From NCBI GenBank assembly GCA_015680685.1, contig MNCI01001077.1, forward strand, positions 377,627 to 441,626: a DNA stretch of 64,000 bases, given 5' to 3'. The notes beneath the pieces were generated by a model. It was not told where the DNA came from and did no database searches. It saw only the letters and a list, made by a program, of their open reading frames with translations. Source of the stretch: Gnetum montanum (Eukaryota > Plantae > Gnetophyta). Below, piece by piece: positions 33,240-64,000 of this stretch. Position 1 is the first letter of the stretch; every line of letters starts with the position of its first letter. The translations under genes and the position numbers were made by a program.

Positions 33240-33247
33240 TATATAAA
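33240..33247 (+). promoter_or_regulatory. TATA box of antisense accessory gene (copy 2)
   Basis: TATATAAA followed by a G-run, positionally homologous to 488-494. Confidence 0.65.
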
Positions 33248-38013: not shown

Positions 38014-38484
38014 TTTTTAGTTTTTCCTTTGGAACTATGCTGACTCAAATTGACACGGGAATTGTAAATTGAAAATTTTGAGATGGACGGAAACAGTTGA
38101 CACTTATAATTGTACAGCATTGCATGTAAAAAAATTTTTTTGTTGATTTTGAGTTTGATTGCACACATGACACGACAATGTAAAATATTTTGGTTCATTA
38201 TATTTTTTATTTTTTGTTTTAAGTTTAATGTGCAGATGTAATTATAAATCATAATGATAAACGAAAGAGGAAAACAAAGTACAAGTGAGTGATCTCGGTT
38301 GTAAACAAGTAACATTTCGAGCCCCAATTGTAAACAAGTAATATTTCGAATAACGTGGGTGGGTTTCTCGGTTGACCGACCATTTTTTTATCGTGGCTAG
38401 TTTTATGTTGTTGCGGACATGATAGTTTAGCATCATTTCAGACATGTTGTAGTTTAGCGTCATTTCGGACGGGTTGAGATGGTA

Positions 38485-40215: not shown

Positions 40216-40448
40216 GGTTACGGCGTATAGAGTGTAGCATGTACAAATAGTAGTGTAGATGCTGGGAGACTTATGGATGGAAGTGTTTGAACTGAACAGC
40301 GTAGATGCTGGATAATTTGCAGCTTAGGTTTTACACTAAGCAACGTAAACATTGGGAGGATTTCAGAAGGAAGCTGCGTATGGTCGGCGGCGTAAACGCT
40401 CAGAAGTGTAAATGCTGGAAAGCTTGCAGGTAAGGTTTTAGGCAGAGG

Positions 40449-40465
40449 CCCTCCTTCTAGCGCCA
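40449..40465 (-). promoter_or_regulatory. PBS (tRNA-Asn type)
   Basis: TGGCGCTAGAAGGAGGG. Confidence 0.8.
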
Positions 40466-40470
40466 ATTTT

Positions 40471-41649
40471 TATACCATCTGAAATCGTCGATCTCTAGCT
40501 GGAAGGAAATAGAGGCCGTGGGATCACAGGATGCGCACAGAAGACCCTACCTTCGCCTGAGGATGAGCCGGAATGAACAAAGGTAGAGTACATTGGGTGG
40601 TCCGCACGTGGATCAGACAAGGATTTCCCCAAACGTACACCAAAGTTCTATATTCTGGGTTATATGTAAATGGCGTAACAGGCGTAAATCAAAGTGTTAA
40701 TAGTGTAACCGATGCAAACAGAGCGTAACGTAAACAAGAAAAAATAGAATACATGCAACAATTAATGCAAACTGTAAATGATTCTGGGAAGAAACTGTAA
40801 CAATGAAATTATAGAATGAAAGCACAATGCACCGGTCTAACGTAGTTGTGACTGAAACATAAGGCGGATGAAAAGCCCCAGTGGATGTAAGGATGATTGT
40901 GGCTGGTTCACACTATAGGCACAACGTAGAGGCTGTATTCTCAACGTACAGGGTTGTCCATCATAAAAGGTTTTGTGCTCTGGTTCATAGCGCTCTACTC
41001 TCTAGTGTGCTCTTGGAATTTTTGCCAATCGACCTGGGACTAGTGCAAAAATTGAGCTTTTATACAGGGTTTTGACGGTGGACTCGGGTTGGGAGACACG
41101 TGGCGTGTTGACTGGGTGCAAGAGCGTAAAATTTATAAGTGTACAATATGTTACATTTGCTAGGCGTATACGTTGAGCGTATATGCTATATCAAGTGAGC
41201 GTAGACTCTGGGCGTATATGCTGGAGCTGCTGGGCATATGCGAATTTGGGCGTAGATGTCGTGGACGCTGGCGTATACGCTGGGCGTATATGCTGATGGT
41301 TGCTGGCATGTACCAAGTCTTGTTCTACAGTGCTGTCTCCATGCCATCTCTAGGGATTTTATTGTTGGGCGTATGCATCTGTTGTATGTTGCTGGGCGTA
41401 CATGTGAGGCATGTACGTTGGACGTCTACACTGGGCACATACGCTGTGAACTTGAGCGTAGATGCTAGGCGTATACGCTGAGAATGTACACTTGGGCGTA
41501 TACGCTGAGACTGCATACTTAGTGAAAATTAAGCATCTGATCTCCGAAGTTGCCATGTGTGACACCAAATGTAACTATGGTTGTCTGTGGGTCCCAGGGA
41601 CTTGTTTGGTGTTGGACAAGTACTAAGCTCCAGATTTTGTGGTGTTTTA
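40471..41649 (-). repeat. 5' LTR of element 2
   Basis: TAAAACACCAC...GGTATA (mutated TG/CA termini); aligns to 27217-28408. Confidence 0.9.
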
Positions 41650-41751
41650 GGTATTAGTACCCAACATAGTGCACATCTTTAGAAAAAATACAATGACGAT
41701 GCCATGACAGCTAAAACAACAATAAGATAGGGAAGGTGAAAAACAACTTAC

Positions 41752-41870
41752 TAGGCAAGTGGAGTAGCCTCCTGAGTTTCAACCCATGCCTTCAAAATTC
41801 TCCGCAAGCTTTCTTGTACTTCATCAATCCTAGCCAACTTGGCATGTTTGCATTTGATCTTCAGTGTCAT
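41752..41870 (-). pseudogene. Exon 1 of accessory gene copy 3
   Basis: MTLKIKCKHAKLARIDEVQESLRRILKAWVETQEATPLA + GTAAG donor; homologous to 11620-11738. Confidence 0.7.
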
Positions 41871-42637
41871 GGTTACGCTTGTATAATCTTCACAAAATCA
41901 TCTACTTATGCTTTCTCTCTGCCTTAGCCTAGCTCAACCTCATGATGTTTATAGTTTACTTTGAGGATGACCCATCTACTTATAAAGTGATGGTGAAATT
42001 TTTCTATTTTCATGTCCGATTAATGCAGAACTTTCCCGAAATGCAGGCATGTTAGTTCCACATGAAGCATAAAGATCGCACCATTAATCTTGTAGATATC
42101 ACATTAATGGTAGTCCAAAAAAACCCTAAACTAACACATAGCTTATCATCTCGTAATTTGGTCACATTAACTATAGTCTGCAAAAAATAAAATAAAACAT
42201 AAATTAGCTATCTCGTCATGCTAGACATGCCATGTTATACCTTTCATCATAGTCTGCGAAAACCTTATGCTTTCACCTAGGAAACCTGGCTCATTTTTTT
42301 CTTACAAGCTATGTATATTATAATGGTTTACTAAGACCTTAAATTGGCAACCTTTTCTGACATGTACCTTTAAAACCTTCTATCATTTCACCATGTTGAC
42401 AAAAATAATGTAACAAGTTCCATTCTTGGTGATTTTGTAGGTCAGTTGGAAAATGGACAAAGCTTTACTTGCACCCGTTGCCCTAATAGGCCCATACGGG
42501 GAAACTTTTAGACATACTAATCTTATAATGATAGGAACTATTGCCCTCTACTATGACATAACCATAGCAGCCTTGGAAGCATCCCTAGACTAGCCAGAAC
42601 ATTTGGCCCAAACCTTACACCTAGAGGCTGGTGATGT

Positions 42638-43761
42638 TGAAACACCCCAAAAAATTCAAAGTCATTCTTGCTTCACCCGGCCTTACAATCTACATAGCAC
42701 CATGATAGTTCTTCGGGAGGAGAATGCTGTCAGTTCAGGCTGGCTAGTTTGGAAAATTTTCTACTTTGGGTATGAACAAGCTCTACGGGTTACATTGCTT
42801 GTCCACCTAAGTAGCTTGCCTAACCAACAACCTACTTAGAAATGGTGCACCGAGTTGGCAACAACATTTTGGATGCATGAAATTTTTCTTTACGTTTTCT
42901 AAGTCATGAAGTCTACTATGCTATGCTACGCCCCCTATGTAGCATAGCAAGCTTTAGAAAGAAACTGTAGAACGAAGTGCCACGCTACGCTATGAGGCAT
43001 AGCGTAGCATGACAATAGCCATATAACCAGTTCCCTCGCTCAACCTTAAGTCCTTCAACAATGTCCTTTATCGTCAAGAAGTGGTGGACCATGTTTGCTG
43101 CTACGCTACGCTAAGCTACATGGTGCAACAAGGCATAGCAATCCTATGGAAAAGACAGAAGGTAGCTCAAATTGTAAAAACAGCAAGTTTACGAGTCCCA
43201 TGGAAGCAAAGTTTGCAAATCGGCAAGGTTTTCGTGACTAAGGCTAGTCACGACTAAGGCCAGTTAGCATTTTCAGCTGGCATTTTATTCCATCCTCCTT
43301 CTACCACCTTGGTAGAATCCCTACACTATCAACCCCCAAGTTCGAGCCCAAGCGTGCAACCTATTTTGCTCGCACATCCTAGTTACTCTCAGGATCTCTG
43401 CACTCCACCACGCTATGCAATCGACTGTATTCACCTTGATAGAGAAAAGTTGTAGCTTCAGAGCTGTACATTTTTCTAACTACATTTTACTTTGTTTCCT
43501 ACTTATTATTGCATTTTGCACTATTTTTCCTGCTTTATTTACTTTCAAACATTACTTTGCATTTTCGTTCCCATTTTCAAAACTATATGTTGGAAAAGGC
43601 TATATAGATGTCAATTAAGTCTCTATCTGATCAACTAGACCGTTTAGGGTGCCCCATATTTGCACCCACCTAGCACGACCCTCCCTTAGGTATGGGGTTG
43701 AAACTGTCTTACCCGATGACCCTTCGGTGTTTTCTAGCCATCGACATTTTCGATCGCTATA
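42638..43761 (+). repeat. 5' LTR of element 4
   Basis: TGAAACACC...CGCTATA followed by PBS; U5 homologous to other LTR ends. Confidence 0.85.
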
Positions 43762-43767
43762 GTTTTC

Positions 43768-43784
43768 TGGTGCTAGAAGGAGGG
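43768..43784 (+). promoter_or_regulatory. PBS (tRNA-Asn type, one mismatch)
   Basis: TGGTGCTAGAAGGAGGG. Confidence 0.78.
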
Positions 43785-43889
43785 CCATTTGGTGCCTTTT
43801 CCACATGTCACGGTAGTTCTATGAGCCTTTTGCATCCTAATATCCATAAGAATAAATGTGATACCCTTTTGTGGTTGTTTACACTTTGT

Positions 43890-44600
43890 GTGGTGTAGAT
43901 CGGTCACCTCGACGGTTCCTTGGGAGCCCTACAAAACACAAAGACTCTAATCACTAGCTAACTAGCTCATCTTATGGTAGTCTTGCATGCATTCCATACC
44001 CCATCTCATGTGGTATAGAGTGGTTCCTTTGATGGTCTCTTAGGGATCCTGCGAGATGCAAAGCCTTCCTGATTGCTAGTTAGCTTGTTCGTCTTATGGT
44101 TGTCTCGCATGCACATTGTACCCCATCTTCCATGGTACAGAGCCGTCACTTTGACGGTCCCTTCGAGATCCTAGGAGACACAAAGCCTTGTTGATCACTA
44201 ATTAGCTTGTCCATCTTATGGTTTTCTTGCATGCACTTTGTACCTCATCTCATGTGGTATAGAGTGGTTGCTTCAACGGTCCCTTGAGGATCCTGCAAGA
44301 TGCAAAGCCTTTTTGATCGCTAGTTAGCTTGCCCATCTTATGGTTGTCTTACATGCACTTTGTACCCCATCTCTCATGGTATATGGAGGTTGCTTCGATG
44401 ATCCCTTAGGGATCCTACAAGATGCAAAGCCTTCTCAGTTTCTAGCTAGCTTTCCCATATTACGGTAGTCTTGCATGCATTCTGCACCCTATCGTGCACT
44501 AGCATAAATGTGACATCCATTTGTGGTTGTTTACGCCTTGTGTGGTGTAGGTCAGTCGCCTTGATGGTTCCTCTAGAATCTGCAAGACGTAAAGCCTTCC
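43890..44600. repeat. ~122-bp tandem repeat (~5.5 copies) in 5' UTR of element 4
   Basis: Units TGGTATAGAGTGGTTGCTTCGACGGTCCCTTGGGATCCTGCAAGATGCAAAGCCTT...ACCCCATCTC near 43890, 44010, 44133, 44255, 44377, 44543. Confidence 0.9.
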
Positions 44601-44683
44601 TTTTTTTTATTTTCCATTTTCCTTGTTCATTCACACTCTTTTGCATAATTTTTTCTCTTTCTTGCATAACTACTTACTTAACA

Positions 44684-47600
44684 ATGGCTTCCACAACTAC
44701 CATTGCTAACACCTTCAATGTGGAGATGCCTGTCATGGTTCAAGGCACCACTGGTGCCGAACAACTACTAAACCCAATGTTGGAAACACGTCGATCCCTC
44801 AAGATCCAAAATCGAGGACCTAAGTGTAATGACGAAAAATTTCGGTCTCTAGAAATACTGAGCGAAGTCCTATGTACATAGTTCCAACCACGAATTCTTG
44901 TGAGGGCCATGTTGGAGAAAACAAATCCAAGGTGCCATGAACGGTCTTGTTGATCAGATAGGAACTTACTTAATCAACAAATTTTGTAATAATTGGATCA
45001 CGAGATGACAATTTTGAGCATCCAACAAGGATGACACCTTTCAAGAAGGACCGAAGGAGCTCGATTCCCAATCTGACGAGGTTGATCAATTCAACCCCAT
45101 TCCTGTCCCTCCTACCTGGTCCTTCTGGGCCAACCCACTGTCTATCACCGCTCCCTTTGTCATCACCCCTACGCTATAGCAGCCTACGACCATAACTACA
45201 ATGGGTAGCCATGCCACATACTTGGCGTATCATCACACTTATTCCCTAATTGCACTCATAGCAACTATGCCACCGCAAACTATTTATCAGCACATCCCTA
45301 TAGTGTGCAACATGCCTATCACGGCTACCCTACTACATGTCCATTCTATACATATTCTGCAACTGCACATAACTACTATGCTAGTTCCTATGTATGCATC
45401 TATTCCACACACTGTGGCGGTCCCAGGCCCGTCCACATGATGGACCCCGTTCGCCTCTTCGTCTATTCTACAACGATCGCAGATGTCTCACTACATTCAC
45501 CCTCAGACCTACCCAACCCTACAAATGGTACATCCTGGCATGAGGCCATGGTCTATCCCATTAGCAACCCAAACATTATATCCGGCGACTCAACCCGCTA
45601 TCACCTCTCTGACAATACCACCCACTAGTTGGTGGATAATGCAAGGAGCACCTTTAGCAGGGGCGGTCCCAATAGCATCATCGATAGGTTGACCTGCCAC
45701 TGCCACCATGCCGCATGTGGGAGTTTCCTATGCAATCCCTCAGCCATCTACAACATTGTCAGGTCTGGACCAAGCGTTTTAGCTCATCTAGACCCTAACT
45801 AAGGAAGTAAAACACCTCAAAGCTGTTGGGTCTGATATGGTACAAGTCATGGACTTTTATCAGGATGACCCTGTCAACCCTGTAATCCCTACTTTGATAT
45901 TACCATTTGGGATGTCTCTCCTGCACTTCATGAAGTATGACAGGGAAGGGAATCCCAATACACATCTCGTCACTTTCTAGTCGGAGTCTTTCCTATTGCA
46001 AAAATGGCCACATACAATCATTTGCTTCTTCATCATGTTCCTAGTTGGGAAAGCCCTAGATTGGTACCATGCATTGCCACATTCATCCATTTCAACTTTG
46101 GAAGAACTCTTGACCCAGTTTGTGACACAATTCAAATACAACTTGAAGCTAGAAACCACATTGGATCAGTTTATGAGCATGAAACAAGACCCACTAGAAC
46201 CAGTCAAAAAATTCATTCAACATTGGAGCACGACCCTTAATGAAATCCGTGAGCCCATCGTGGAGGCTCACTTATTAGCCATCTTTAACGGTGCAGTGAA
46301 TTACTTTATCAAGTCCAAATTGTATTATCTCGCTCCACGCTCTCTTAGCCAAGCTTTCGCTTAGACTAAAAGCATACAATACGTGGCTGATGGAAGCAAA
46401 GACCCTGTCTACACCACTTACAAGAACAACTTTGCAAAAAGGGATAAGTGTAAGGCCCCAACATCCACAGTGGTTGTTGTGGCAACCAAGGCTAAGCCCA
46501 AATCAAGCAACAGCGGAAGCAAGAATAATAAGAAACTAGCCATACCTACAGCTAACTCTGCGGCCAATTTGGGCCAAGCACCACAACCTACCACACATGC
46601 ACCCGAGGCATCTGCATATACTAAACCCAACTTTGAGCACAAAGATCATTCAAAATACATCCCACTGCCTCTCAAACCTTTAGAACTACTGAAGCAACTG
46701 TTGGCAATGGGATACATCCAACACAAGCAGATGTCAGAGGAAGAAAACTTGAGACATCAACGCTACTACGAGCTTCTTAGGAATCCCTCTTTGGCCCTAC
46801 CCAATCAGCCTCCAGTTCCTAGGGGTTTTAGGCTAGATAGGTTTTGTGACTACCACCAACTATGTGGTCACATCACAGATTATTTTCTATCATTGCAGGA
46901 TGACATCCAAAGATTAATTAACCTAGGAAAGCTGGTGCTGGATGAAAGAAACCTAGTATGCCCTAAAAATCAATCTATGTATGTCTAGAAAAATTCCCTC
47001 AATGCTAATAACATCGGTTACATAATCATTGACATCAATATTGACAATGATCCTAGGCCACCCTTCTAGTCATTTTTGATTCGTGTGCCTCAGCGTAGTG
47101 CACCAATACCACCAGTGGTTGGTCCAACCTCGTACCCACCCTTCATCCTGAAATTCCCAGCACAGGCATCTACCTATGCACCACCTATTGGCAAGGTCAT
47201 ACAACCCTGTCAATTAACACCTCTAGCTCCATTCATCATCAGGGGACCAACATCTTCAACAATCCCCATCCCATGCAATGACATTAAATAGCCTCCTCGC
47301 TCCACAAGGAGAGAAGCCCACTTGGTGGGTAAGATGTCAAAGGTATCTCTAAGCCTACGCATTCATCCCTCATATTTACACCTTCATCACCAAAGATGAA
47401 GGTCAACACGATTACACAGCCTGCATTACCTTGCCAACAAGGATCTGAACCTAGGTCCGATATCATCTTTCCTCAAGAGATTCGTCTTCTAGGATGAATC
47501 GAAGAGGAGGGAAGTGTCAAACAGGTAGGCGGCCAAGATTTCTTGGACGCCCTCACCTAGATCAAGCAAGCCCTAAAGCAGAAAAATACTACATTGTGCT

Positions 47601-48454
47601 TGTACGACCTAGTCATGACATCTGTATCTCATCGAGAGGCTCTAGTCTGCATGTTAACAGCGATTCCAGTCAACGAGAACATGCCAGCGGAAGATGGAGC
47701 GATCCACTCGGTAATGCTTCCCTCTGTACCCATAGAGTCTGCAACACCTCAATTAATTTTTTGTAATGACACCATTAGGAAAAATCCCAAAGGGGGTCAA
47801 GTGACTACAACACCTCTCTTTACCACAATTCGGGTTGGCCAACACCAGATCTGAATGGTACACATTGATGATGGGGCTACCATGAAGTTCATTCCCTTCC
47901 CTATAGTGGACAAGTTGCGATTGGTCATCCAGATCAAACCAACAATGACATCATGTCTAAGGTCATTCAACGGGGCATACATCTTGGCGAAGGGCATGGT
48001 TCACATAAACTTCGTAGTAGGGGACCAGTTCCCCATAGATGCAACATTCATCGTAGTCGAAGAAATGCCTGGGTTTAACTTGATCTTGGGGAGATCATGG
48101 TTAGTGCAACTCAAGGCTGTCTCCTCACCTATACACCAGGAAATCCACTTATCATATGTAGGTACAGAGGTGGTAATCCGTGGTGACGAAGTGGCAATGC
48201 AAGAAATCAATAATGTAGGCATGGAATAGGGTTCAGAAGTTACAACCTCTGAGGATGAAGTGCCTATTCATGCATACATTAATCATGCAGCAGGAGGATC
48301 GGTCCAGTGAACCGACCCTCAAATCGAAAACTCATGGGTTGAGTTGCCCTTCCAAAAGATGGACAATGATATGAACAGGGGCCCTGGTGAAACATCTCAA
48401 CCTTATGTTCTGATCAACCCACGATGGGTCAAGAAGCAATTGCACATAGCGTAG
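44684..48454 (+). pseudogene. gag-protease of element 4
   Basis: GKALDWYHALPHSSISTLEELLTQFVTQFKYNL, FCDYHQLCGHITDY, VHIDDGATMKFIP, FNLILGRSWL; stop at 48452. Confidence 0.9.
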
Positions 48455-49057
48455 TGGCCCTATGGCTTCTCACTTGATCACTATCCTTGTACATTTATCG
48501 TTTCCTTGCCTTCTTAGTATGTTAACCGTTCGGCATGCTACGTAATGGCCCAGAATGACCTAAAACTAGCATTGTTGCCTTATGGCTTTGTTAACAACCT
48601 ACCTCTTTTGGCATTGACCTGAAATGTCCTAAATCTAGAACTATCACTTGTCACTTTAATTTTTCATGTAATTGCCTAAAATGGCCAAAAATTAGCAATG
48701 GCCCGAGATGGCCTAAAACTAGCATATAAAAGCATGAAAACTCTACATAGTACACAAGTTAATACAAAATCAATTTCCTTTCTGAATTTTTTCATTTCAT
48801 TCAAAATTTTCACCTATTGGAAATGTTGCAAAATTTTTGAAAAAAAAAGATGGAAAATCCCATGTTGTCATGGGTTTTTTGCAACGCCTTCACCATTTGC
48901 CTCTGCTTCATCTACTTGTGGATCACCCGCTTCTGCATTACCCTCTATCGATCCTACATTCCCTCTCCCCGCAGGGCTCACACCCTTATCTGGAGCCTGC
49001 ACCACAAGAATGAAGTAGTTAGCTATGACAAAAAACATGGTAGATGCAAGCTACAAC

Positions 49058-50997
49058 TGAAACACCACAAAATTCAGAGCTTAGCACTTCTCCAACAAGA
49101 ATCAAGCTAAGTCATGATGCTCCCTAGCATGACTGAAGTTTGAGGACCTCATAGGTAGCTTCAAACAGAGTCAAAATAAGCAAGAAATGGTTCACTGTAA
49201 TCCAAAAAAGATACAATAAAATCTAGCATCAAACTTGGCAGCTCTTGAGCTCAAAATACTTGGTCTTCACTAAGTATGCATACTGTACGTTGGCCTATAC
49301 ATGCCCACCGTACAGCCCAGCGTACAGAAAATTTTGGACCCCAAAATGGGTCAAAACATGCCATAATTAAGTGTCTGGATCCTAGAAGACCTTCCCCAAG
49401 GTCCCTAACAACTCTCAGGCACTTGAAAATCAAATTTTGGGCTCCAAATGATGGTCTTTCATTCCTGTACGCCCAGCGTGTAGCCAGCGTATAACAAGTT
49501 TTGGGCCCCAAAAATGAGTCAAAACATGCCATAATTGAGCATTTGGACCCCCTATGATGTTCCCCAAGGTTCCCAATAGCTCTTAGGTACTTAAAAATCA
49601 AAGTTTGGGCTCCAAATATTGGTCTTTTATTCCTGTATGCCGAGCGTATATGCCTAGCGTGGAGCCAGCGTAGAGCAAATTTTGGGCAAAAGAAATGAGT
49701 TAAAACATGCCAAAATTGAGTGTTTGGACCCCTCCAAGACCTTCCCCAAGGTCTCCAGTAGCTCTCAAACACTTGAAAATCAAATTTTGGGCTCCAAATA
49801 ATGGTCTTTCATTCCTATACGCCCAGCCTATACGCCCAGCATGTAGCCAGCGTAGAGCAAATTTTAGGCCCCAAAAATGAGTTAAAACATGCTAGAATTG
49901 AGTGTTTGGACCCCACAAGACCTTCCCCAATGTCCCCAATAGCTCTCAGGCACTTGAAAATCAAATTTTGGGCTCCAAATTATGCTCTTGCATTCCTGTA
50001 CGCCTAGACTATACACCTAGCATGCAACCAGCGTAGAGCAACTTTTGGGCCCAAAAAATGAGTCAAAAAATGCTAGAATTGAGTGCTTGGACAACCCAGG
50101 ACCTTCAACAGGGTTCCCAGTAGCTCTCAGGCATCCAAAAGTTAATTGTTTACCTTAAAATGAAGCATTTTCATGTGTGTACGCTGGGTACATTTCCCAT
50201 GTACGCTGGCATGCTGTACGCTAGCATCCATGTAAGCCGGCATCCTATACGCTGGCATCCTGTACACTGGCATCCATGTACGCTGACATGTTATACACTA
50301 GCATGCTATATGTTGGAATCTTGTAGGCTGGCATCCATGTACACTGGCATCCATGTCATCTGACCCAAAATCCTCTCACCCACGACCAGTCATACCCTTC
50401 CAGATCCAAATCCAACGCCCAAAAACCTGATAAAAACCCCAATTTTTCACTAGACCAAGGGGGAAATTTTGGGGAAACTGGGGGAGAAAAAAATAGAGAT
50501 GCTGAAAAAATTAGAGAAAAAAATCGTATATGCTAGACTTTGACCCTGCACGCTGAGCATACAGCCTTCACGTTGTGCCTGCAGTCCAAACCAGTATACC
50601 CTCTTCCCTCCGCATCACCAGGGCTCTTCATCCACCTTATGTTAGACCCACAACTGCGTCTAGATCGGTGCATTGTAATTTTTATTACGCAATACTATTG
50701 CTGCATTTTTGGACAAGATTTGTTATATTGTTCATTCTTGTGTGCTTACTATTTACATTCTTGTACGTTTATGCTCAGTTTTACATCTGCTACACCATTT
50801 ACATATAACCCAGAGTACAATATATCGGTGTACGTTTGGGGAAATCCTTGCCTGATCTGCGTGTGGACCATTCAAGGTACTCTACCTTCGTTAATTCTAG
50901 CTTGGCCTCAAGTGAAGGTAGGGTCTTTTGTGTGTGTCTAGATATCTCCAGGTTTCTGTTTCATTCCAGCCGGAGGTCGACAATTTTGGACGGTACA
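49058..50997 (+). mobile_element. Solo LTR, family A-related
   Basis: TGAAACACCAC...GGTACA, perfect TSD ACAAC (49053-49057 / 50998-51002); closest to 19830-21365. Confidence 0.93.
49330..50135. repeat. ~180-bp tandem repeat (~4.5 copies) inside solo LTR
   Basis: Units TTTTGGGCCCCAAAAATGAGTCAAAACATGC...CACTTGAAAATCAAATTTTGGGCTCCAAAT...CCAGCGTAGAGCAA starting ~49332, 49499, 49680, 49862, 50044. Confidence 0.92.
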
Positions 50998-53900
50998 ACA
51001 ACATACCATGAAAGTGACTAACTTGAGAGGAGCCTACGCCAGTCTCAAGGGGTATCTAGTCTAGAACAAGCTTGAGGTGATGCCAAATCTCCTCTATTGA
51101 AATATCCATCCAACGGCCATCGCTGGGTTCAACATTTGCTACAACAACCTTCTCCCATTCCATTTTCGTCCATTGTAGAGGTTCCATGGAAAGGGAAGTA
51201 GTTGTGGCCTCTCCCGTAGGAAGGTTCACCCTCAAGTCAGAAGATTCTGTGACCTTCACCCACTCTTTAAACTTAGCATAGGCCTCAGAAGTGCCGATCA
51301 CCTTCATGAATGATTCATACATGAATGCCTCCATAGCAACGTCTCTGAATAGTTTTTGATGGGTCTCATTCTCCAACTTGTACATATGTTTATGGTTTCT
51401 CTGGGTTTTCCCCCATCCAAATATCTTAGCACTGATGTCTTTCATGTCTTGGCACTTCTAGGCCAACAAGCCCATCTACCTTTGTTGTTCGACTATCTCA
51501 CAGGTGGATTCAATGTTCTAATGAATGATGATCCAAAACCTAACATAGTCATCTATAGCCCTCTACCAATCGACTGGGTCAAGGTTGCGGTTTATAAGAA
51601 AAACGTTCCTCAACCTAAGATTCTCCACCTCGGTAGCCAAGTCGACCTCTCTCTGCTCAGGCATGCCTAAATTCCCACAGAGAGCATTTCGAGTTCAAGA
51701 CACACTTATAAGCCTCATTAAACATATGACAAGATACCTCAGTCACATCAGGCGAGAGTGTGGGCACTGCGCCAACCTTCATAGGTTGTGCTAGGTCCCA
51801 CTTAAGATGAGAGGCTATTTAACACATGGATCATAGTAATCACATTAGCATAGCATAATCAACAAACTTGAAAGCTTCAATGTAGCAACATAAGGGCAGT
51901 TAACATTGATACTTACCCGCATGAGGGTCCACTTGTTGAAGGCGCTTGATCATATCGTCAACAAGTCCCTGCATGAACGTAAACTTGTCATGGACATTGT
52001 CCCACAACTCTATATGAAGCGAAGGAGATCCCGCAGTGTCAGCAGTGACACTTGGTACACGATTAAGTATGTTAGCAATAACCAAAACGAACTATGATGA
52101 GGTAGATGTCTCACAAACTCACTGGTGCCTGACTGCGGTCTTTCTTCTTATTGAGGCAAGATGACCATGGTAGCCATGGTAAAGGGCCCTTGCAAATCCA
52201 TGTAAGTCCCTTCCTCATGTGCTGATGCCTTTCCTTTAATAACACTAATATCTTTTTTATTTTTGGAGGGAACCTCTTCATTGTTAGGAAAAGACTGCCT
52301 AATAACAAGAGCCCCTGCCCTAGAAACAGAAGCTTTATTATTCCTAACCTATGCCCTTTCCTTCGAAACTTAGGCCTCTACATCTTTATTCATCACCACC
52401 GTACTAAGGGTTGGCACTTCTTCATCACCTTCTCCTTCATCTTCTTCTTCCTCTGCTAAGCAAAAAAGGCATGTTTGTGTCAATTCAAAACAAGCTAGTT
52501 CAAAATAGATGCTACGCTACACTGCACAACATAGCATAGCAAACTATAATAAAATAAGCATTATACAAAAATTCTTACCAATGGGGGGTTGCATCCATTG
52601 TAGCTTAAGCCATAGTCTCTGCCCCTCTTCTTCACGATAGCTTTCCCTGGCTGGGGGAGGTCTCTTCCTTCGCAGCTCCCTGGGCATAGTCTCAACTATG
52701 AGACGTTCACCCAATATCATGCTATGAGCTATAACATGGGGCATCTCTCCTATACTGTCCTGGCCGCGAGCGCTGCGAACTGCTAGACATTTAGTCATTA
52801 TAGAAAATGACTCCCTGACCATTTCAAAGGATCCTGGGCTTGCATAGTTTGGAGGACCTGCCAAATCCATGACTTGGGAATCTGGTCGTGGTCTACCATG
52901 GACCAGAATCCATCCTCCTGGACCACTAGGAACTCCATGAATCACTTTAAACAGCATATGTAGAAGGCATAGTGTATGTTAGAGTGGGACTCTAACATAG
53001 GAATTCAGCGTAGTTGTAATGGGCCTCCTCCTCCATGACTTCCCGCATTACCTAGGCCTGCTCAAGCCCTAGGAAATTTCCTTTGATGAGCAGTTAAGGA
53101 AATGCATGGGCACGAAAGACCAGGTATATCCCCATGCCAAGGCCATTCTTAAGCTTTCAATGGGGAACCCTTTTCACTCCTTGGAGAGCCTCAGCCACTC
53201 CTCAATATGCTGCTTCTATAGGATCAAGTCCTATTTTCCCTTCGATACTACATGGGTGTCATCGGTAGGAACACCTAACAGATCCGCAAACAGTTGGTCA
53301 TTGATGTCAATGACCACCCGCATGCCCTGCACGTACGTGTGAAAATGGCCAACCTTCCTAGAGAAGGAGTTGACTAGGGAAAGCATCTCACCAGAAGAGA
53401 CTCGTAGGTTCGATGCCATAAATAGATCCATAAGCCTTGTCCTTCAGACTTTCATGAGCAAAGAGTCTAGGGCCCCTCATTCTAACTAGCTTTGGCTCAT
53501 CACTACTTCACCATATTTGAAGTAGATGTTTGCTCCCTACCTCTTGGCTGTTACCACCATCACCTCACGAGGCTTCTTCGCCATTGCAAAAATTTTCACA
53601 AAACACACTTATCCTAACAATGCAGAAAAAAAAAGATTACAAAAAGAACTAAGCATGTGGCACCTACCTTTTGACCCACTAGGTCTATACAATAATGGGA
53701 ATAGTGGGAGTTCAACTGCTAGAACTGCTTCAAGCATGACCTATTTGAAAGGTTCTTTCCACTCCTTGTCCAACCAACCCTTCATCCTACACCAATTATA
53801 GAATGGTGTGAGTGTGCATAGGTAAGTATGGTATTCTTCCTTGCACTAACCAATCACGTCCACCCATAGGCTCTTGGAGAGGAAAATTCCTGTAGGGCTA

Positions 53901-55332
53901 GCTTTATCGTAGTCAGCAGATCTGGTTGATCGTGAACCATGTCATCATCAATGTAGAACCTGGTGACAAACACACATTATTAGCATTCAGCCAGGTATAG
54001 TCAGCATCACATAAGAAAGCAAAACAAAGATGCAAAAATCACCCACCAGCACAATAGATGGTCCCCTATGGATTCTGAAAGTGCGTCGCGATGTGACATG
54101 CGAGGTAAAATGTGTCATACATGTGATAGCACTGGTATTCCGGCATGTCCTAGATCTAGGCTAAATGCCTCAACCCTGTTGGGTGTTGGCTAGACCTCCC
54201 TCCCTACCCGCTCATGGTCGTCTCATTGAAAAGATATCTTAGGATGCCTCGATTTGCCCCTGGAAGCATGACCTCTATTCTGTTAGAGGCCTATGTCTCA
54301 TCTAAGGAAGACCAAACAATCACACTATAGTGGTTGAGAACGAATTTCAAGAACTCTCATGCCCTTCCCTGAACCAAACTACTCAATCTCCCACACATAT
54401 TGGGGGAGGAGGAGCATTGGCCATAGGTCTGCTAACATGGCACAAGACCCCTCCAATGCTCAAAATGATTAGCCTAGACCTTGGCCTTGCCTTGCACAAT
54501 GCAATCAAAAAATGTTGCCTTCAAAGATGAATGTAATACACATGCAACGTAGCAGTGTCTAGCAGTCCATAAATATAGCATCGCATAACCCTCCATCCAT
54601 ACATATCATAGCAAAGGTGTGAAAGCCTAGCATAGCGAAAACATGCAAATAGCTCAGTGTAGTAGTATAACAATTGGTGACATGCCCAAACAAAACCTGT
54701 GACGTGATGCCGCATCGCACATTACCAAACCCTCCCAAGGGTTTTATGTTACAACAAGCCAAGGTCAAACAACTTAAATTGCCTCAGCCCCACAAGCATG
54801 ACAACCGCAATGGTAGTAGTTCCAGCGGCCTTACAACGAAACCTTTGCACATCAGCCATGACCAGAAAAAGGGCCACAACGATCCAAAGGCTAAAACAAC
54901 TTGGCCGCAGAAAACACATATAGAAAAACAAATACGACACAAAACTAGAGAAGAGAACAGAAAAAGATGCAAAACGAAAAGAGTGAAGGAACCATGAAAA
55001 CTTACTGGGTGAATGGTGTGCCCTCTCGCGCCAGAATTCATGCTTGTGGCATGCATCTCAGAGCCTTTTTTGCCTCCTCAACCTTCAAAAGCACCAAATG
55101 ACTCTTAGGAGCCATGGCTCTCCATGGAGATTTATGACCTTTGCTATAGAAATTCATCTTTCTAGTTGATCAACACAACTACTCTGTTCTCCAAAATCAT
55201 CTTATGCTTCGATGAGGGTTCTATGCTCTTATGGTGGAAATAGTGAAATTACCCGGGTTTAACCCCTATTTATAGCCACAAGGGAAAGATGAGGAAACTT
55301 ACCTCTTTCTCTCTTCGATTAATGCGGAAAAT

Positions 55333-58066
55333 TTCATGACCCCCTAGGCAACTTTTTGTTATGCCATGATGCCCTTCGAGATAAAAAATGCCAGAGCAAC
55401 TTATCAACGTGCCATGACATATATCTTTAGTGATTACCTCTTAGAGAGATTGAAAGACTACGTAGATGACATAGCTATTAAATCTAAGAAGTTGGAAGAT
55501 CACCCAAAGGACCTAAAGTTAATCCTTAAGAAATGTCTTAGGCATGACCTGCAGCTCAACCCAAAAATATGTGTATTCAGAGTCAAACTAGATGCATGTT
55601 GGGGTTTGTAGTATCGAAGGCTGGCATACAAGTCGACCCTAACAATGTTAAGACCATCATTAACCTAACACCACCTACAAACCTCAAGGAATTATGTGGG
55701 TTGCAAGGTAGGTAGCAGTTTATTAGGATGTTCATCTTGAAGTTGACAGATAAATTACATCTTATGCAACATTTTCTCAATAAGGGGGTTAACTTTCAAT
55801 GGATTGAGGATTGCCAGCATGCCTTTGACAACCTAAAGAAAGAGCTACTACATTTGCCAATGGTTTTTCCACCACAAAGGGATCAACCTTTCTACATCTA
55901 CCTGGTAAGCTGAGATGTGTCCATAGCTGTATTATTGTGTTGAAAGAGAGACGATGGGTCAGAAATCCCTATCTATTATCCAAGTCACGCTCTATTTACA
56001 TACAAAATGAGGTACAATGAAGTAGAGCATAACCTTTTGGCATTGGTTTTTGCACTCAAAAAATCTAAACACTATATTTTTCATAGCTAGGTTAACATAA
56101 TTTGCAAAAACAATATTCTGCAGGCCATCACAAATAATTTATATGAGAGCAGTAGGATAGCCCACTAAAAAGCCATCATAGCAGAATTTGACTTGCACTA
56201 TGTTGGCCAATCTTCCACGAAAGGCCAAGTGATAGCTGACCAACTTGTAACATCACCTATTAGTGATCAGGCCACGATAGAGCCTAAGTTTCTTAATGAA
56301 CATGTACATAGTTTAATCCCTATATTAATAGGCCTCGAAGTGACGTTATACTTTGATGGAGCTTTGACTACCAAAGGCGGCAGTGCCACCATTGTCATTA
56401 CACTTTCCCTTGATGATTTTCACCCATTGGCTTACCACCTAGCATTTCCTTATACAAACAATGTGGCAAAATATGAGGGGCTCCTCAAGGGATTATTGGT
56501 AGCCAAAGAACTAAATGTCCAACACCTAGCAATTTGAGGTGATTCGATGATTATCGTCAGTCAAATCACAAAATTCTATGATTGCAAGACTATGCATTTG
56601 CAACTCTATTGCGATATGGCTAAAGATATTCTAAAATAATTCATAACAACTGACGTCCAGAACATGCCACATAATGAGAACACCATAGCTAATGCACTAG
56701 CTATGCTGGCTTTAAACGTGCCACCACATTTGTTTGCCACCTCACCTACTTTAATGATGGAATGTATAGATCCTGTCAAACAAGTGGCACAAATCTCTTC
56801 CTTATGTGTAGAAGGAACATTAGAATGGTATGACAACATTAAAACCTACCTTCTACATGGCGAACCACCATATGAGTTAACACCTACACAAAAAGATGCA
56901 ATCCGCAAGCCTGCTAGAAAATATATCATCATCGGAGATAGTACTCTATGTAGGCACTCTTTCGATGGCATATTGTTGACCTACATTAATAATGACCAAG
57001 CACAAAGGATAGTTAGCTAAGTCCATGAAGGCCTATGTGGAGGACACATAGCCCTGGGAGCCATGGTCGCTAAAATCAGACACTTAGGATATTACTGGCC
57101 ATACATGGAATGAGATTGCCTTACCAAAGTTAATACATCTGATAGATGCCAGCTTTATGCAATTTTGATACACATGTCACCAACTAAATTGCATACTACA
57201 CAAATCACTTGGCCATTTCAATTATGGGTATTAGACATCATAGGCCCCATCACGCCTAAGTCTTCCATAGGACACAACTTTATTAACATTGCCACTGAGT
57301 ATTTCATGAAGTAGGTTGAGGCTATTTCCCTCCAAAAGACTAGGTCTTAACAGGTCTGCCATTTTATCTTGGACAACATAGTAACTAGGTTTGGGCTTCC
57401 CATGACTATTGTGACCGAAAATGGGCCACAATTTAGTAGTAGAAAAACCAAATCTTTCTGCAATAACCTTGGTATTAAGCAATCTTTTCCTTCATCTTAT
57501 TACCTGAAAGAAAATGGTCAAGAAGAAGCAACAAACAAGGTGGTTATCAATTTACTCAAAAATATGCTTAGCAACAACAAGAAATGATGGCATGAAAAAA
57601 TCCTCTACGTGCTATGGGCCTATCATACGACATATAGAACAGCTACCAGTAGGACACCCTACAGCCTATTCTACGGATCTAAAGCAGTGTTGCCCCTTGA
57701 ACTATAGGTTCCCTCACTATGGATGGTCCTCTCCATGGTTATAAATGAGACTCAAAACAATGAGTCTAGGATCATGGATCTAAATTCAGTGGAGGAGAAA
57801 TGCATCCAGACACTCGACAACATCGAAAAATATCAGGATAGAAAGAAGTAGACACATCATCGCAACTTGCATCAACAACTAATTAAGAAGGGAGACTTGG
57901 TTCTTCGGCCATTCATGAACTAGTGACAAAATTCTCTGCAAGCTAGGAAGGCCCCTTCTTGGTCATAAATGCATATGGCAATGAAGCATTCAGGCTAGTG
58001 GATAGCAACGACAACGAACTTCCAAATCCGGTGAACCACAAGTATCTAAAGCAGTACCACATTTAG
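55333..58066 (+). pseudogene. pol of element 3 (RT C-terminal part - RH - aRH - INT)
   Basis: Collinear with 13041-15776 from FMTP onward; YVDDI, LYFDGA, TNNVAKYEGL, TENGPQF. Confidence 0.92.
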
Positions 58067-58097
58067 ATGATAGCCCAGATTAAACACAAGGTAACAA

Positions 58098-58460
58098 ACA
58101 TCCACTACAATATAAAACTAGCAATGTTGTACACATCCATAATGATGTTAAACTAACATTTATTGCACGCATTCGCCATAATGTTAACCTGACATAGCTT
58201 TTGACCATATGCCACGATGTAAAACTAGCATAGTAAGCATCTGTACGCTGAGATGTTAAACTAGCATAGACTTATCCCTAGGTCATGACACAAAATTGAC
58301 ATCCAGAGCATGGTCTGCTAGGATCATAAACTAGCCCTTAAGCCATCTGCTACGATGTAAAACTAGCATGCTTCAGTCTGCCCAGGCTTTAAAATGGGAC
58401 CATGGTTTGCTGGGACTTAAAATAAGCAACAAAGGTCTATCAAGACTTAAAATTGGAATC
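58098..58460. repeat. Motif array downstream of integrase (family B)
   Basis: ~12 units TCYGC-x3-GA-x2-3-AAACTAG with variable spacers. Confidence 0.82.
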
Positions 58461-59611
58461 TACCAACAAAAAATCCATGAAGCAAGCGAGCCTAATCATT
58501 CTTGCATGAAATCCCTATTAGACAAAGTGGGTAGGACATTGGAATAGACACAACTCTTCCACCCTCCTAGCATCCTACTAATTCCTTGGATATGCTGAAA
58601 GGCATACGACTGAACCCTCAGAGATGCTGCTACAACGGCCACTTAGCAATTGCAACTCTTTGGGTCAGCTTCTCCACTTAGAGCCCCAAGGATACCATGG
58701 TCACCAATAGCCTTGGCTACCTCTAGCCATCATTGCCACTAGATCTTCACTTAGCAAATTCATCTAACTGGCTTCTTGTCTAGTCAGATGGATAAGATAA
58801 ATCTGGCTCTTGACGGCGAATTCTTGAGCTATGGTGTCAACAAAGGGACTTGTGCTTCTTTCTATGGTTCCTTCTTCATGTCTTGCACTCTCCCTTTTTC
58901 TCCTAATGGCACTTGTTTCAATAGTCTCCCCAGTGATTAGGATGACTGCTTTTGTTCTCTGTTCTTTGTTACGTTTTGTAGGTTACTTGCTACGATAGCG
59001 TTATTCAAAAATGTTTTCTCTAGGGGGCTGAGGTGTCAATGTTCTGAGCTTCCTACAAAGTGAAAACCCCACCTTTCCCCCACTAGACACCTTACCTTAC
59101 TTTCTCCTTGCCTTACAATCGCTCTTACCTTCTCCTCCTGTTGGTATAGAATGAGAGTGTACAGGAAGTCTTTCGTACATGAATAACCATCATGTTCATG
59201 AAATGTCGTAACGCAACTTTTCTCATGGAAAGCATATAAATTTTAAAAAAATTTGAAAAGCTAGGAAAAATGGATGAAACACAACTCGTCCAAGTCATAT
59301 GGGAGTAACACAACTTGTCCAAGCAAGCCCCGCATATACGGTACAATAGCGTAACCTCTTGGGAAAACACCTACGAGATGATGTCTAATAACATGTTTGT
59401 GAAGTATCCTACTCACGCTTGAGTCTTCCCCAAACCTCCCTTCCTCATAACTATAAAATCCTTCCCTGCTTCTTGTGTTTCCACCTTTGCACTTCTAGGC
59501 TTGACAGGGCAACATCCGAGCAGAAGCCGATGGACGATGTTGGCGTCTCTGCCTCTATGATGTTTTGCATTCTTTGTCGATGTCTCTCAGACAAGCCCTC
59601 CAAATGTCAAC

Positions 59612-59620
59612 AAAGAGGGG
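59612..59620 (+). promoter_or_regulatory. Polypurine tract of element 3
   Basis: AAAGAGGGG-CCAT immediately before LTR TG; identical at 63954-63962. Confidence 0.85.
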
Positions 59621-59624
59621 CCAT

Positions 59625-62326
59625 TGAAACATTATTAAATTTCAAGACCTCGATGATTCAGCAAAGTCTCGAGGCGTAGGCAAGGATTTTCAACAAGTGG
59701 TACATCTTAGCAAGTTTTCTTTTATTTTTGGCTACGGGCCTGCTACGCTATGCTACATAGCTCAGCGTAGTAGACTTCAGGAGAAAAGAATAGCATAAGG
59801 GATGTGTAGTAAAAACACTTCAATTTTACAAGTTAGCCATGTTTAGAAATATTAACTTTTTCCATACTACACCATGTTACGCTATGCAGCGTAACGCAAG
59901 TAGCACGGTTGACTTAGCCACAACAACAAAGATAATGAAATTCAGGTAGTAGTAGTCATTACGCCACAATACGCTATACAACGTGAAATAGCGTAAAAAA
60001 TTGCGAGTCGGCCTTAGGCAAAGATTCGCAATTCAGGCAAGGGCGCATGCTAGAATTCCAGAAGGGGGATTAAGATAGAGCAACACCAAGAGGCGCGCAG
60101 CATCGAATCCTCGACTTCTTGTGCAAATTCCTAATCTTTCTATGCTTTTTCTATTTACGCTATATCATGCAACGTAGCGTAATGGCGCTTAGTGTGATTT
60201 TGCCTAAACATAGTCTAGCATCAGAAGGATAGTTACTCCGGCATAAGGAGGAGCTTGAGCTGCGTAATATGCGACTTCTTGTGCATTTTGCTAAGTCTTT
60301 TGTTCAAAGCCAGGTATACGCTATGTTACACACGGTAGTGTAATAAGCTCCAGAACAGTCAAAGACAAAGTCTAAGAAAGTGTGACTGCTCATCATATGC
60401 TCATAACGCAATGCAGCATGTTATAGCATATTGCGTCGCCAGGCTAAACATTGTTTACACTTCACTATGCGCAGCTGCGTAAGCGAGCGTAAAACAACTT
60501 GAATACATTGTTTCCATGTTACATTACGCTCATACATGCAACACAGCGTGAATGAGAGTAATATGACCCAAAGACAGTTGAGACAGGCCCGACGTGCATC
60601 TCTTCTTCACACGCACAATACACGAACGAGCGTATTGTGCGTAGTCATGAAGTTGACGCAAAAATGGGCAAACCAACAGTCCCTGAAAAACTTGGAACAC
60701 ACGTCATCAGGGTTGCACCTATTCCGCGGAGCGTCGCAGCCTATAAATATCCCGGTTGACAAAGATACAAGGGTTGGCAAATCAGAGAAGCAAAGGCATT
60801 TTTCTGAGCACTAGAGCACTTATCACCTTTGAGCAGAGATACAGAGAGCAGCGCTTTAGCAATTGTTGACAGCATCACCTTGCGGTAGAAATAGAGCACA
60901 GTTCGCTTCGAGCATCGGCAACAGGAGTAATCGTTCTGCTGGGAAGACTCTATTGGCCAGAAATAGTTGATCGGTAGACGTCAGAGCTTAACCTTCCTTG
61001 CATCCCAGCTTTACCCCTCGAGGTAGATCAGACTTTTGCCTGGACCGTTTTGCTTGTTGTTTTGTGCTTGGTTCACATCGAGTAATTGGGGATTCCCCAG
61101 TGTAATTTCTCATACAAAATATACATTTTTCAAGTCAAAGCATAGATCTTGAAACTACGTGTTTCTCTTATGTCAGCCTCCTCTTATCATATTTAACATT
61201 ATCATCATTGCAATTCGTCTACATCATTTTCCCCTCGTTTTTACGATCCCTCGAATAAGATTGTTTCACGAGATATTCATCGGTTTACTGATTAGTAAGT
61301 CCCTGTCTAATCGACAAGACCGTTCAGGGCGCCGCGGATTCGTTTTTCCAGCATAGCCCTCGCACGGATCCGTGGTTAAAACTGTGTACGCGGAATTTGT
61401 TCAGTATTTTCCAACTGCCAACGTTTTCCGTCGTTACACAACGTATCACAACATAGTTGCAGGATAGTTAATTCAGTGCAAGAGACAAGGTTAAATGAAT
61501 GGTCTTCTTAAAGGGTGGTTACGCTATACTAAGCTTCAAAGGGTAACACAGCGTAGTGCCACAAGCTTCAATTACGGAACATCAACTCAATGGCATTTTA
61601 TGGGCCCAAGACATGCATCATCTAAACCACATTTTTTTCCTAACCCTAATCTTATAAATACCCCAGGGGACAATGCTCAAAGCATTGGCAATTTTTGGAC
61701 AGTGTTGGCAGAAAATTAGCGAGACAATGAGAAAGAGTTGGCAATAGAAGAGCATCGATGGTGATAGAGAGAAGCTTTTGATCAGAGATTCCAAGTTAGC
61801 AGACACTTTGCTTCGAGCCTGACTCCATTGCTTCTAGATTTTCTAGAACAAGGTAGATTGGCCTTTTCTTATTTCATCTCTAATTAGCTTCTTGTTGGTG
61901 GTGGACACTTTGTCCAAACCAAGGTCTGCTTGTAAATCCCATTATATTCACCATATTTATCTATAATGTAGATCCCACATCTCGGGATCATGCATGTTCC
62001 AAATTCAATTCATTGCACCTTGTTTACATTGAATTCTACAATAATTTCATATAATTTACATCACCTTCATTACCTTCAAGATCCGATCTTGGAGCAGATC
62101 TTGTTTTCTTGTAAATTGATAATATACTTGCATATCAAATCATTGCCTCATTATACGATCATTAAGAAATTTACTGACTATGTAAGTCTTTGTCTGATTG
62201 ACAAGACCATTCAGGGCACCTTGGATTCATTTTCTCTAGCACAGCCCTCAAGCGGATCCGAGGTTAAAACTCTGTATAGGGAAATCTCCTCGGTGTTTCC
62301 AGCAACAGAAATTTTCCTTCATTACA
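59625..62326 (+). repeat. 3' LTR of element 3 (split by solo LTR 59984-61438)
   Basis: TGAAACATT...CATTACA; aligns to 15809-17061. Confidence 0.92.
59984..61438 (+). mobile_element. Solo LTR, family D
   Basis: TGAAATAGC...CGTTACA, perfect TSD CAACG (59979-59983 / 61439-61443), CTATAAATA ~60741, U5 homologous to family B. Confidence 0.92.
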
Positions 62327-64000
62327 ATACATGTCCGCTATGATGTAAAACTGGTAGTGTTGTAACAAATGTCCGCTATGATGTAAAACTGGTAGTGTTG
62401 TACACATCTACTTTTGACGATGTAAAATTGGCATTTTTTGCATGTGTTCGCCACGATGCTAAACTGACAAGGCTTTTGACTATCCGCCATGACGTAAAAC
62501 TGGCAAGGTAAGCATCCTTCTACTAAGATGTTAAACTAGCAAAAACTTGTCCCTGGTTCATAACACAAAATTGACACCCGCAGCATAGTCCTCTAGGATC
62601 ATAAACTAGCTCTTCCACTATTCGCTATGACATAAAACTAGCACAGTTCGGTCTACCCAGAATTTAAATAGGGACCATGGTCTGCTGGAACTTAAAACTA
62701 GCAATGATGGTCTACCAGGACCTAAAAATGGGATCTACCAATAGACCATCCATGAAACAAGTGGGCTTGAACATTTTTTCATGACATCCCCATTAGACAA
62801 AACTAGTAGGGCATTGGAACATATGCAACACTGCTACCCCTAGCATTCTATTCATTCCTCGAATATGTCGAAGGGCATACTACTGACCCCTTCGAGATGT
62901 CACCACAATGGTGAATCAGCAATTGCAAATCTCGAGGTTAGCATCACTAGTTGGAGCCTCAAGAAAACTATGATCAACCATAGCCTTGGTTCCTCTAGTT
63001 GTCACCACCATCAAGGTCTGGCTTCCAAGATTCATTTGACTAGCTCTTTGCCTAGTGAGATGGATAAGATGAACCTAGCTATCGACAGCAAATTCCTGAG
63101 CCATGATGTCAACAAAGGAAACCTTATCTTTTTTACTGCAGTTCCCTTTTTATGATGCACTCCCCTTTCTGCTTCAGATGACACTTATTTCAACAGCCTC
63201 GCTAGTGGTTAGGATAGTTTCTTTCATTCTTTGTTCTTTGTTGCATTTTGAAGGTTACTTGCTACAATAGTGTTGTTCAAAGATGCATTCACTAGGAGGG
63301 TGAGGCGTCATAGTGTTCCGAGGTGGCTGCTCGGACTAGCTGGACTACTTCAGAGTGCTGACCCTGCCTTTCCCCTCAAGATACCTTACCTTACTTTTTA
63401 CCTCTCTTATTCTTGCAACTACCCTTACTTGCTCCTCCCATTTGTACAAAAGATGTATACATACAAGGAGCCTTTCGCACATGATAGCCATCATGTCTAT
63501 GAACCGGCGTAATGCAACTCACCTCATGGAATGCATCTGTAGGTAGGTTAAAACCCTGTATAGAGATAACACAAAAAAAAATTAAAAAAGTAGGGAAATC
63601 TAGGAAAAATGGATGAAACAAAATGTGTCCAGGCCATATAGACATAACACAACTTTCCCAGGAATGTCCCAGATATATAGTGCAACAGCATAACCTCTCA
63701 TGAAAAGACCAGTGAGAAGTTATCTAATAACATGTTTACAAGGTATCCTGCTTACACTTGAGTCTTCCCCAAACCTCTCTCCCTCACACTTGTAAAATCC
63801 CTCTTCTAATCCTTATACTCCCAACCTTCATACTTCAAAGTTTGATAGAGAAACATCTGAGCAGCTGCCAATGAATGATGTTGGCATCTTTACCTCTGTG
63901 GTGTTTTCACATTCTTTGTTGAAATCTCTCGGGCAAGCCCTCCAAGTGTCAACAAAGAGGGGCCATTGAAACACCATCAAATTTTGAGACCTCGATGATT
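62327..64000 (+). mobile_element. 3' segment of outer family-B element: motif array 62330-62735, 3' non-coding region, PPT 63954-63962, start of 3' LTR at 63967
   Basis: Collinear with 58098-59660. Confidence 0.9.

Follow-up and report, generated by a model that had tools for sequence, protein, structure and literature searches.

The window, which is the whole stretch of 64,000 nucleotides of Gnetum montanum DNA analysed here, contains decayed plant Ty3/gypsy LTR retrotransposons nested in one another. Pfam places their domains in the order gag, protease, RT (RVT_1), RT_RNaseH, additional RNase H (RVT_3) and integrase (rve). This is the gag-PR-RT-RH-INT order of Ty3/gypsy OTA/Tat elements plus the additional RNase H (aRH), which is described as the defining mark of the Tat clade (PMC6317226); as laid out in that source, the placement of aRH in the window elements agrees with Ogre/Retand and disagrees with TatI-III. 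The closest integrase relatives are seed-plant proteins with 44-52% identity. Judged by domain content, the elements are plant Tat-type gypsy LTR retrotransposons. Self-comparison and tblastn separate two families, one comprising copies C, D and E on the + strand and the other copies A and B on the - strand. In both families the primer-binding site starts TGGCGCTAGAAGG (window 17064-17082 and 40445-40464), which we take to be complementary to tRNA-Asn. Thousands of contigs resembling the array stretch of copy D are present in four DNA runs (three organism labels), so the family is abundant.

The element layout runs LTR, gag-PR, stop, array, antisense accessory gene of several kb, array, separate pol ORF, stop, array, 3' UTR and LTR. 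The features that frame the arrays are as follows.

12250..15776, + strand: pol ORF of copy D (RT-RH-aRH-INT), decayed; its own in-frame ATG stands 50 nt past the start of the last unit's AAACU
29253..32851, - strand: decayed pol ORF of copy B, with its ATG 8 nt past the start of the last unit's AAACU
62735..63966, + strand: 3' UTR of copy D, ending at the polypurine tract; the 3' LTR of D begins at about 63967
15809..62326, + strand: nested 46.5-kb insertion between same-family LTRs (15809-17063 and 59625-62326)
15804..15808, + strand: left copy of the target-site duplication ATACA, inside the 32-nt gap from the D integrase stop to the first unit
62327..62331, + strand: right copy of the target-site duplication ATACA
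33239..37833, + strand: antisense accessory gene region in the PR-RT interval of copy B; a TATA-like box at 33239 is followed by ORF pieces
1445-4814 (+), 23336-26761 (-) and 51059-54356 (-): other antisense gene regions

The LTR at 59625-62326 itself contains a solo LTR at about 59980-61438. In copy B, the gap from PR to pol measures 5632 nt, holds 106 ATGs and contains the antisense gene with its TATA-like box. Pol has an in-frame ATG of its own, at a distance from the last unit of the pre-RT array of 8 nt in B and 50-52 nt in D and C, and a crude scan near the end of PR found no conserved splice donor in three of the four copies.

Tandem arrays of one short motif occupy the three junctions of this layout.

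62332..62731, + strand: post-integrase array of copy D, 12 coremin-like units (hairpin plus AAACU), 2 of them degenerate
11981..12207, + strand: pre-RT array of copy D, 3 units; absent from the initial annotation
58099..58455, + strand: post-integrase array of copy E, orthologous to that of D at 62332..62731; begins 32 nt past the INT stop (58066)
28900..29193, - strand: post-integrase array of copy B, which belongs to the second family; loops of 9-10 nt occur in two of its 9 units
32852..33016, - strand: pre-RT array of copy B, 5 units in which the second stem pair is the C-G variant
38396..38471, - strand: post-protease array of copy B; begins 13 nt past the gag-PR stop (38485)
5221..5535, - strand: post-protease arrays of copy A, 4 + 4 units; begin 13 nt past the gag-PR stop (5549)
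22731..22865, + strand: post-protease array of copy C
42112..42348, + strand: pre-RT array of copy C, orthologous to the pre-RT array of D; absent from the initial annotation
48547..48723, + strand: post-protease array of copy E

The motif is present at all eight regions where the initial annotation had reported it, and the two pre-RT arrays at 11981-12207 and 42112-42348 had been overlooked. Post-integrase arrays begin 32-59 nt after the integrase stops, and the post-protease arrays of A and B 13 nt after the gag-PR stop; window scans found no motif units in LTRs or leader. The repeat at 62330-62735 had been described as lying after INT. It directly follows an LTR in the present DNA, and it comes after INT only once the insertion at 15809-62326 is removed. 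With the insertion taken out, the distance from the D integrase stop (15776) to the array is 32 nt, the same as in copy E; because removal of the ATACA-flanked insertion restores the gap of copy E, 62332-62731 is the post-integrase array of D. It holds 10 recognisable and 2 degenerate units at a spacing of 29-38 bp, and its first two units are a recent exact 38-bp duplication.

Each unit opens with an arm of 4 bases and a loop of 6, continues with the complement of the arm and two variable bases, and closes with AAACT. The halves of the motif do recur as the bipartite element noted earlier, in which the inverted-repeat relation of the halves had gone unrecognised. A weight matrix trained on the arrays returned 45 matches of at least 15 bits compared with 0.13 in shuffles, a partly circular result in that non-seed matches account for only 7 of the 45. 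The published hexaloop rule for xrRNA-C, the exoribonuclease-resistant RNA class based on the viral coremin motif, is matched at 19 window sites against a null mean of 0.2 (maximum 3 in 40 shuffles), and tetraloop versions of the rule gave 0 window matches. All 19 sites fall within arrays and are element-sense, in line with the single orientation reported before. The shared orientation fails to discriminate between a DNA and an RNA reading, because the VANC motifs described in PMC5735166 are also arrayed in one orientation. An Rfam scan of the window with E up to 1 gave no match, so no hammerhead or other catalogued RNA family is present.

Among units of one array, core identity amounts to 0.58-0.60 (shuffled 0.25). 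For the spacers the corresponding figure in copy B is 0.29, against 0.27 after shuffling; in copy D it is 0.36, against 0.25 after shuffling with a 97.5th percentile of 0.31. The spacers are thus nearly unrelated, with some trace of shared descent remaining in D. The earlier claim that the motif is kept and the spacers are unrelated after INT therefore holds within arrays. It fails between copies: in the post-integrase arrays of D and E, 135/173 core positions, 84/109 spacer positions and 842/1118 positions of the downstream UTR are identical, such that spacers are as conserved as motifs, the outcome named beforehand as counting against a binding-site array, in a comparison of one sister copy in which both copies are old. 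Among 40 listed common differences between the DNA runs and copy D (there are 186 further ones), 22 lie in the array; 11 of these 22 hit constrained positions, and 10 of the 11 shift towards pairing or the motif. The motif deviations of D are, to judge from these differences, mostly private decay, and the D-E comparison is diluted because of it. Contigs of other copies in the DNA runs jump between units, which fits gain and loss of units. The original argument that plain slippage is insufficient is supported, in favour of selection on a motif.

Stem-pair counts were made on 52 of the 55 window units, three with longer loops or misregister being left out. The outer stem pair is Watson-Crick in 25 of the 52 (13.5 expected by permutation), and in 44 it is complementary as to purine-pyrimidine class (26.4 expected by permutation). 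The latter measure is immune to CpG decay, because decay from C-G to T-A cannot interchange the purine-first and pyrimidine-first classes; both counts overstate independence, as the units are related by duplication. A fifth stem pair has no support either in the window (15/52 vs 12.6) or in the metagenome units considered below (75/364 vs 96).

According to the parts of the coremin literature available to us (PMC6546385, PMC10520033, PMC10321173), xrRNA-C needs a hairpin of 3-4 bp that is closed by a pyrimidine-purine pair and in which structure counts more than sequence. Its loop reads YGAD or YGNNAD, the AACUA spacer is essential, and a hairpin 2 of at least 2 bp has to follow this spacer directly. 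The hexaloop type is YGNNAD (PMC10520033); within the spacer, A16-A20 are essential, and two variable bases precede AAACUA (PMC6546385, PMC10520033). The window units share with the xrRNA-C of Dilweg et al. (2019, 2023) the 3-4 bp hairpin, the C-G closing pair, the YGNNAD loop, the two variable bases and AAACU(A). The three inner pairs of hairpin 1 are retained in 37 of the 55 window units, and the YGNNAD loop in 25, or in 37 if CpG-type G-to-A changes are allowed. Covariation is seen at two of the stem pairs. The second stem pair is T-A in 34 and C-G in 13 of the 52 units, a tolerated swap that corresponds to the U-A to C-G rescue mutant of coremin (PMC6546385). The fourth pair, described as dispensable in viral coremin, of which tandem copies are also known (PMC6546385, PMC10520033, PMC10321173), is the one often broken in the window. 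The loops CGAAAU and CGAGAU, both present in the window, are reported as Xrn1-resistant in vitro (PMC10520033). Sites just past stop codons and in intergenic positions are a further common feature.

This is in contrast to known xrRNA-C with regard to the LTR retrotransposon host, the number of up to 12 units and the occurrence at three junctions. The window units also differ in that a distinct hairpin 2 is not above chance (31/55 vs 36.3 shuffled; small hairpins are common by chance and the copies are decayed) and in that position 20 is frequently G. The spacer ends in AACUA in 31 and in AACUG in 13 of the 55 units, and the conservation of AAACU is partly a selection effect because it served as search anchor. 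The coremin of BNYVV needs A20, where A20U kills and A20C works; A20G is absent from the mutants reported in the texts available to us. The rules for hairpin, loop and AAACU are passed together by 19 of the 55 window units, and by 14 with A20 included; the units at 38455, 5519 and 22747 are examples that satisfy every rule. Of the 9 units scored in the post-integrase array of copy D, no more than 2 pass the rules for hairpin, loop and AAACU, and each of these has G-U pairs and G20. A candidate swap of loop position 2 and position 20 from G-A to A-G gave a weak signal confounded by CpG decay and cluster structure and is not put forward here. Taken together, the arrays are real and look like RNA structures rather than DNA sites, and the window units probably work like xrRNA-C, as a variant of it. 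The motif may have been captured from a virus or may be convergent, either being compatible with an element of 20 nt.

The recurrence of the motif elsewhere was studied by comparing a three-unit degenerate pattern with metagenome contigs, which yielded 91 stretches in 89 loci, or 88 loci in 37 similarity clusters after one duplicate was dropped. The likeness of these loci to the window is confined to the motif. The outer pair, which lies outside the search pattern, is Watson-Crick in 265 of 364 unique metagenome units compared with 117 expected; within-cluster permutation averaged 185.5 and never exceeded 206 in 2000 rounds, and with one unit per cluster the count is 20.7/37 against 9.3 expected. 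It is the strongest covarying column pair of the metagenome units. The YGNNAD loop is present in 180 of the 364 units, the pattern having fixed only the loop A. As in the window, hairpin 2 is not enriched in the metagenome loci (339/461 vs 318.7 shuffled, maximum 342).

Pfam was applied to 150 of the 189 long ORFs of the metagenome loci and, in 19 loci, to 251 shorter ORFs as well. For most loci no gene could be assigned. Genes for RdRp or picorna-like capsid stand beside the arrays in L017, L031 and L051, where the arrays lie between ORFs. In viral contigs, the real pattern found 7 stretches and a reversed-tail control 1; these contigs contribute L090, L093 and L096, and L092 is the same contig as L017. 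The arrays of L090 and L093 begin 10 nt past the RdRp stop. An integrase scan of the viral contigs gave no match. The period in L031 and L093 is 27-28 nt, so that a separate hairpin 2 between units lacks room. The uncultured RNA-virus contigs L017, L031, L051, L090, L093 and L096 are noted in their own right as carrying intergenic tandem hexaloop coremin arrays.

Among the 8 metagenome loci with a retroelement domain, 4 have the array in sense, 3 have it in antisense and 1 has arrays on both strands. In L041, seven near-identical coremin-like units (445-660, - strand) occupy the 3' UTR, 75 nt behind an intact RT ORF of 1126 aa with a LINE-like build. On the evidence of its ORF, L041 represents a second class of retroelement that carries the motif, and it is the sole clean case among the metagenome retroelement loci.

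Two groups of largely non-coding loci were also observed. L003, L004, L005, L027, L052, L054, L065, L068 and L077 share a repeat, several kb long and non-coding, along which up to 17 coremin-like units are spread; it is possibly a non-autonomous element or a non-coding RNA; its host is eukaryotic, because one copy adjoins a BRCA2-like gene. The L008 cluster comprises 37 loci (e.g. L037, L069, L074, L076) that are mostly non-coding, with unit arrays ending in AAACUG. Some of its contigs have arrays on both strands, as inverted repeats or assembly chimeras might produce.

Both families have the antisense gene, which probably contains introns, in the PR-RT interval. Its ORF pieces are homologous among copies A, B, C and E, and the accessory proteins of the two families are only ~34-37% identical. 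Besides an orphan domain and another conserved piece, the gene encodes a piece weakly resembling NIF/FCP1 (E 0.0012, below the cut-off). A word search found no homologue of the accessory protein, which was assigned to no confident family. A cadherin match among representatives was judged spurious, Atlas matches of 0.82-0.86 to plant hypothetical and DUF1985 clusters serve as leads only, and the structure model, with a pLDDT of 41.6, is unusable.

These features suggest that the hairpin-AAACU units match xrRNA-C and bring the host's 5'-to-3' exoribonuclease (in plants, XRN4) to a halt on the sense RNA; we put the probability of this reading at about 0.65. Decapped or cut retrotransposon RNA would be digested by XRN up to an array and no further. 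A plausible trigger is the 5.6-kb stretch that stays untranslated past the gag-PR stop; another is double-stranded RNA arising through the antisense gene. Stable fragments would then start at each array, one just upstream of pol and one a non-coding 3' RNA. Tandem units would add redundancy, the hairpin of the next unit may substitute for hairpin 2, and gain and loss of units through slippage or template switching would leave drifting spacers. A wider proposal, by analogy with viral subgenomic RNAs, is that a plant Tat-type lineage expresses pol in the same manner, XRN4 trimming the RNA to a coremin-type roadblock before the pol ATG as other roadblocks leave a stable non-coding 3' RNA, and that elements of the coremin type would, if so, belong to the general cis equipment of eukaryotic mobile DNA, LTR and LINE-like elements included, and not to viruses alone. 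We regard this proposal as speculative and rather doubtful. Translated subgenomic RNAs arising from intergenic viral xrRNAs are discussed in PMC10520033. The weak step of the pol-expression route is translation, since an uncapped fragment that starts with a ribosome-stalling element makes no obvious mRNA. Splicing as in Ogre is a possible alternative route to pol.

The same RNA fold could act mainly on translation, by stalling scanning or post-termination ribosomes past the stops and before pol, and in this way limit pol or free the RNA for packaging. Hexaloop variants of xrRNA-C are reported to stall scanning ribosomes in reticulocyte and wheat-germ extracts (PMC10520033), and the arrays adjoin stop codons and the pol ATG. 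Scanning ribosomes are rare in 3' UTRs, however, and the post-INT array has no downstream ORF, so that we consider a mainly translational role unlikely; it needs the same fold and is therefore compatible with XRN stalling. The neighbourhood of the 5' end is where packaging signals are normally situated, and scans of the LTRs and leader yielded no unit, which speaks against units serving as RNA docking sites for Gag or a host protein in packaging or export of the long unspliced RNA, with a convergent likeness to coremin. The sense-only, multi-copy, hairpin-based units would suit such docking, and convergence is conceivable for a motif of only ~20 nt, but the fit reaches mutationally defined details (loop positions 1, 2, 5 and 6; the pyrimidine-purine closing pair; the essential AACU; the dispensable fourth pair). 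The alternative offered initially, a packaging or export signal, pointed in the right direction as to the RNA level, and packaging or export itself is decidedly unlikely.

The preferred suggestion of the initial annotation had been a set of sites for the accessory protein, comparable to VANC. In this case the arrays would be double-stranded DNA sites at which the antisense accessory protein acts in anti-silencing, as VANC21 does in VANDAL elements (Hosaka et al. 2017, PMC5735166), and the two systems do have in common tandem same-orientation motifs in non-coding parts and an extra protein encoded by the element; an inverted repeat could also suit a dimer. The VANC motifs, as that source describes them, are sequence-fixed, family-specific DNA sites of 8-9 bp in DNA transposons. 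The window motif, in contrast, is a covarying hairpin common to families and to RNA viruses: its stem bases change yet stay complementary, the spacing of its arms is 6, 9 or 10 nt, and it obeys xrRNA-C rules. Its occurrence spans two families with accessory proteins of ~35% identity, for which no family or VANC likeness was detected, and extends to RNA viruses, which have no DNA stage. A VANC-type model is accordingly unlikely for the arrays, and we hold the DNA-site explanation to be very improbable. The lowest probability, a slight one, goes to an ordinary, functionless hypervariable tandem repeat of the Tat/Ogre-type non-coding region. Tandem arrays are common and family-specific in the pol-3'LTR regions of Retand according to PMC11963269, and the equal conservation of core and spacers between D and E is what such a repeat would give. 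It is hard to reconcile with one motif at three junctions of two families with non-aligning spacers, with the covariation and the recurrence in RNA viruses, and with the fixed stop-codon distances of 13 nt and 32 nt.

The elements otherwise resemble published Tat/Retand elements in being Ty3/gypsy with an archaeal-type RNase H between RH and INT, and in having long non-coding regions, antisense extra ORFs and tandem arrays adjoining pol. PMC11963269 describes the published arrays as specific to a family and their function as unknown, whereas the window motif is common to families and junctions. The antisense gene of the window lies between PR and RT, in contrast to the published one between pol and the 3' LTR; a gene at the former place was not found in the Tat descriptions as far as these were available. 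In Ogre elements the intron is located between PR and RT. Similar to the window elements, Ogre with its intron has non-coding sequence separating gag-PR from RT-RH-aRH-INT, as described in PMC12786077. The window elements differ from Ogre in the gap of 5.6 kb with 106 ATGs and an antisense gene, and in a pol with its own in-frame ATG.

A literature search, mostly outside subscription journals and of texts without supplements, found no paper linking coremin or xrRNA-C to retrotransposons, and the 2025 review of plant LTR elements (PMC12786077), in the sections available to us, mentions Xrn1 only for yeast Ty1. Tandem arrays in Tat/Retand are already known; within the scope of this search, the coremin match in a retrotransposon appears to be new. 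If the XRN-stalling reading is true, exoribonuclease-resistant RNAs extend from viruses to retrotransposons, and a frameshift-free expression of a pol ORF 5.6 kb behind the gag-PR stop is suggested. The loci also supply hundreds of natural covarying variants for a motif for which the coremin papers, in the parts available to us, give no solved structure. The function of a Tat/Retand-type array becomes directly testable, because the array maps to an RNA element with published, cheap in vitro assays.

We also note two other kinds of repeat in the window. Long-period tandem repeats of 122 bp and 181 bp occur within LTR-like insertions (43968-44493 and 49317-50133). A second repeat family is built on a short palindrome and is present in LTRs and upstream of the antisense gene.

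556-669, 1137-1486 and 33344-33834: GCGTATACGC-like palindrome repeats
near 10862-11131, 20726-21132 and 50197-50356: GCGTATACGC-like palindrome repeats in LTRs

As an array of DNA-binding sites, these palindrome repeats are a better candidate than the hairpin-AAACU motif.
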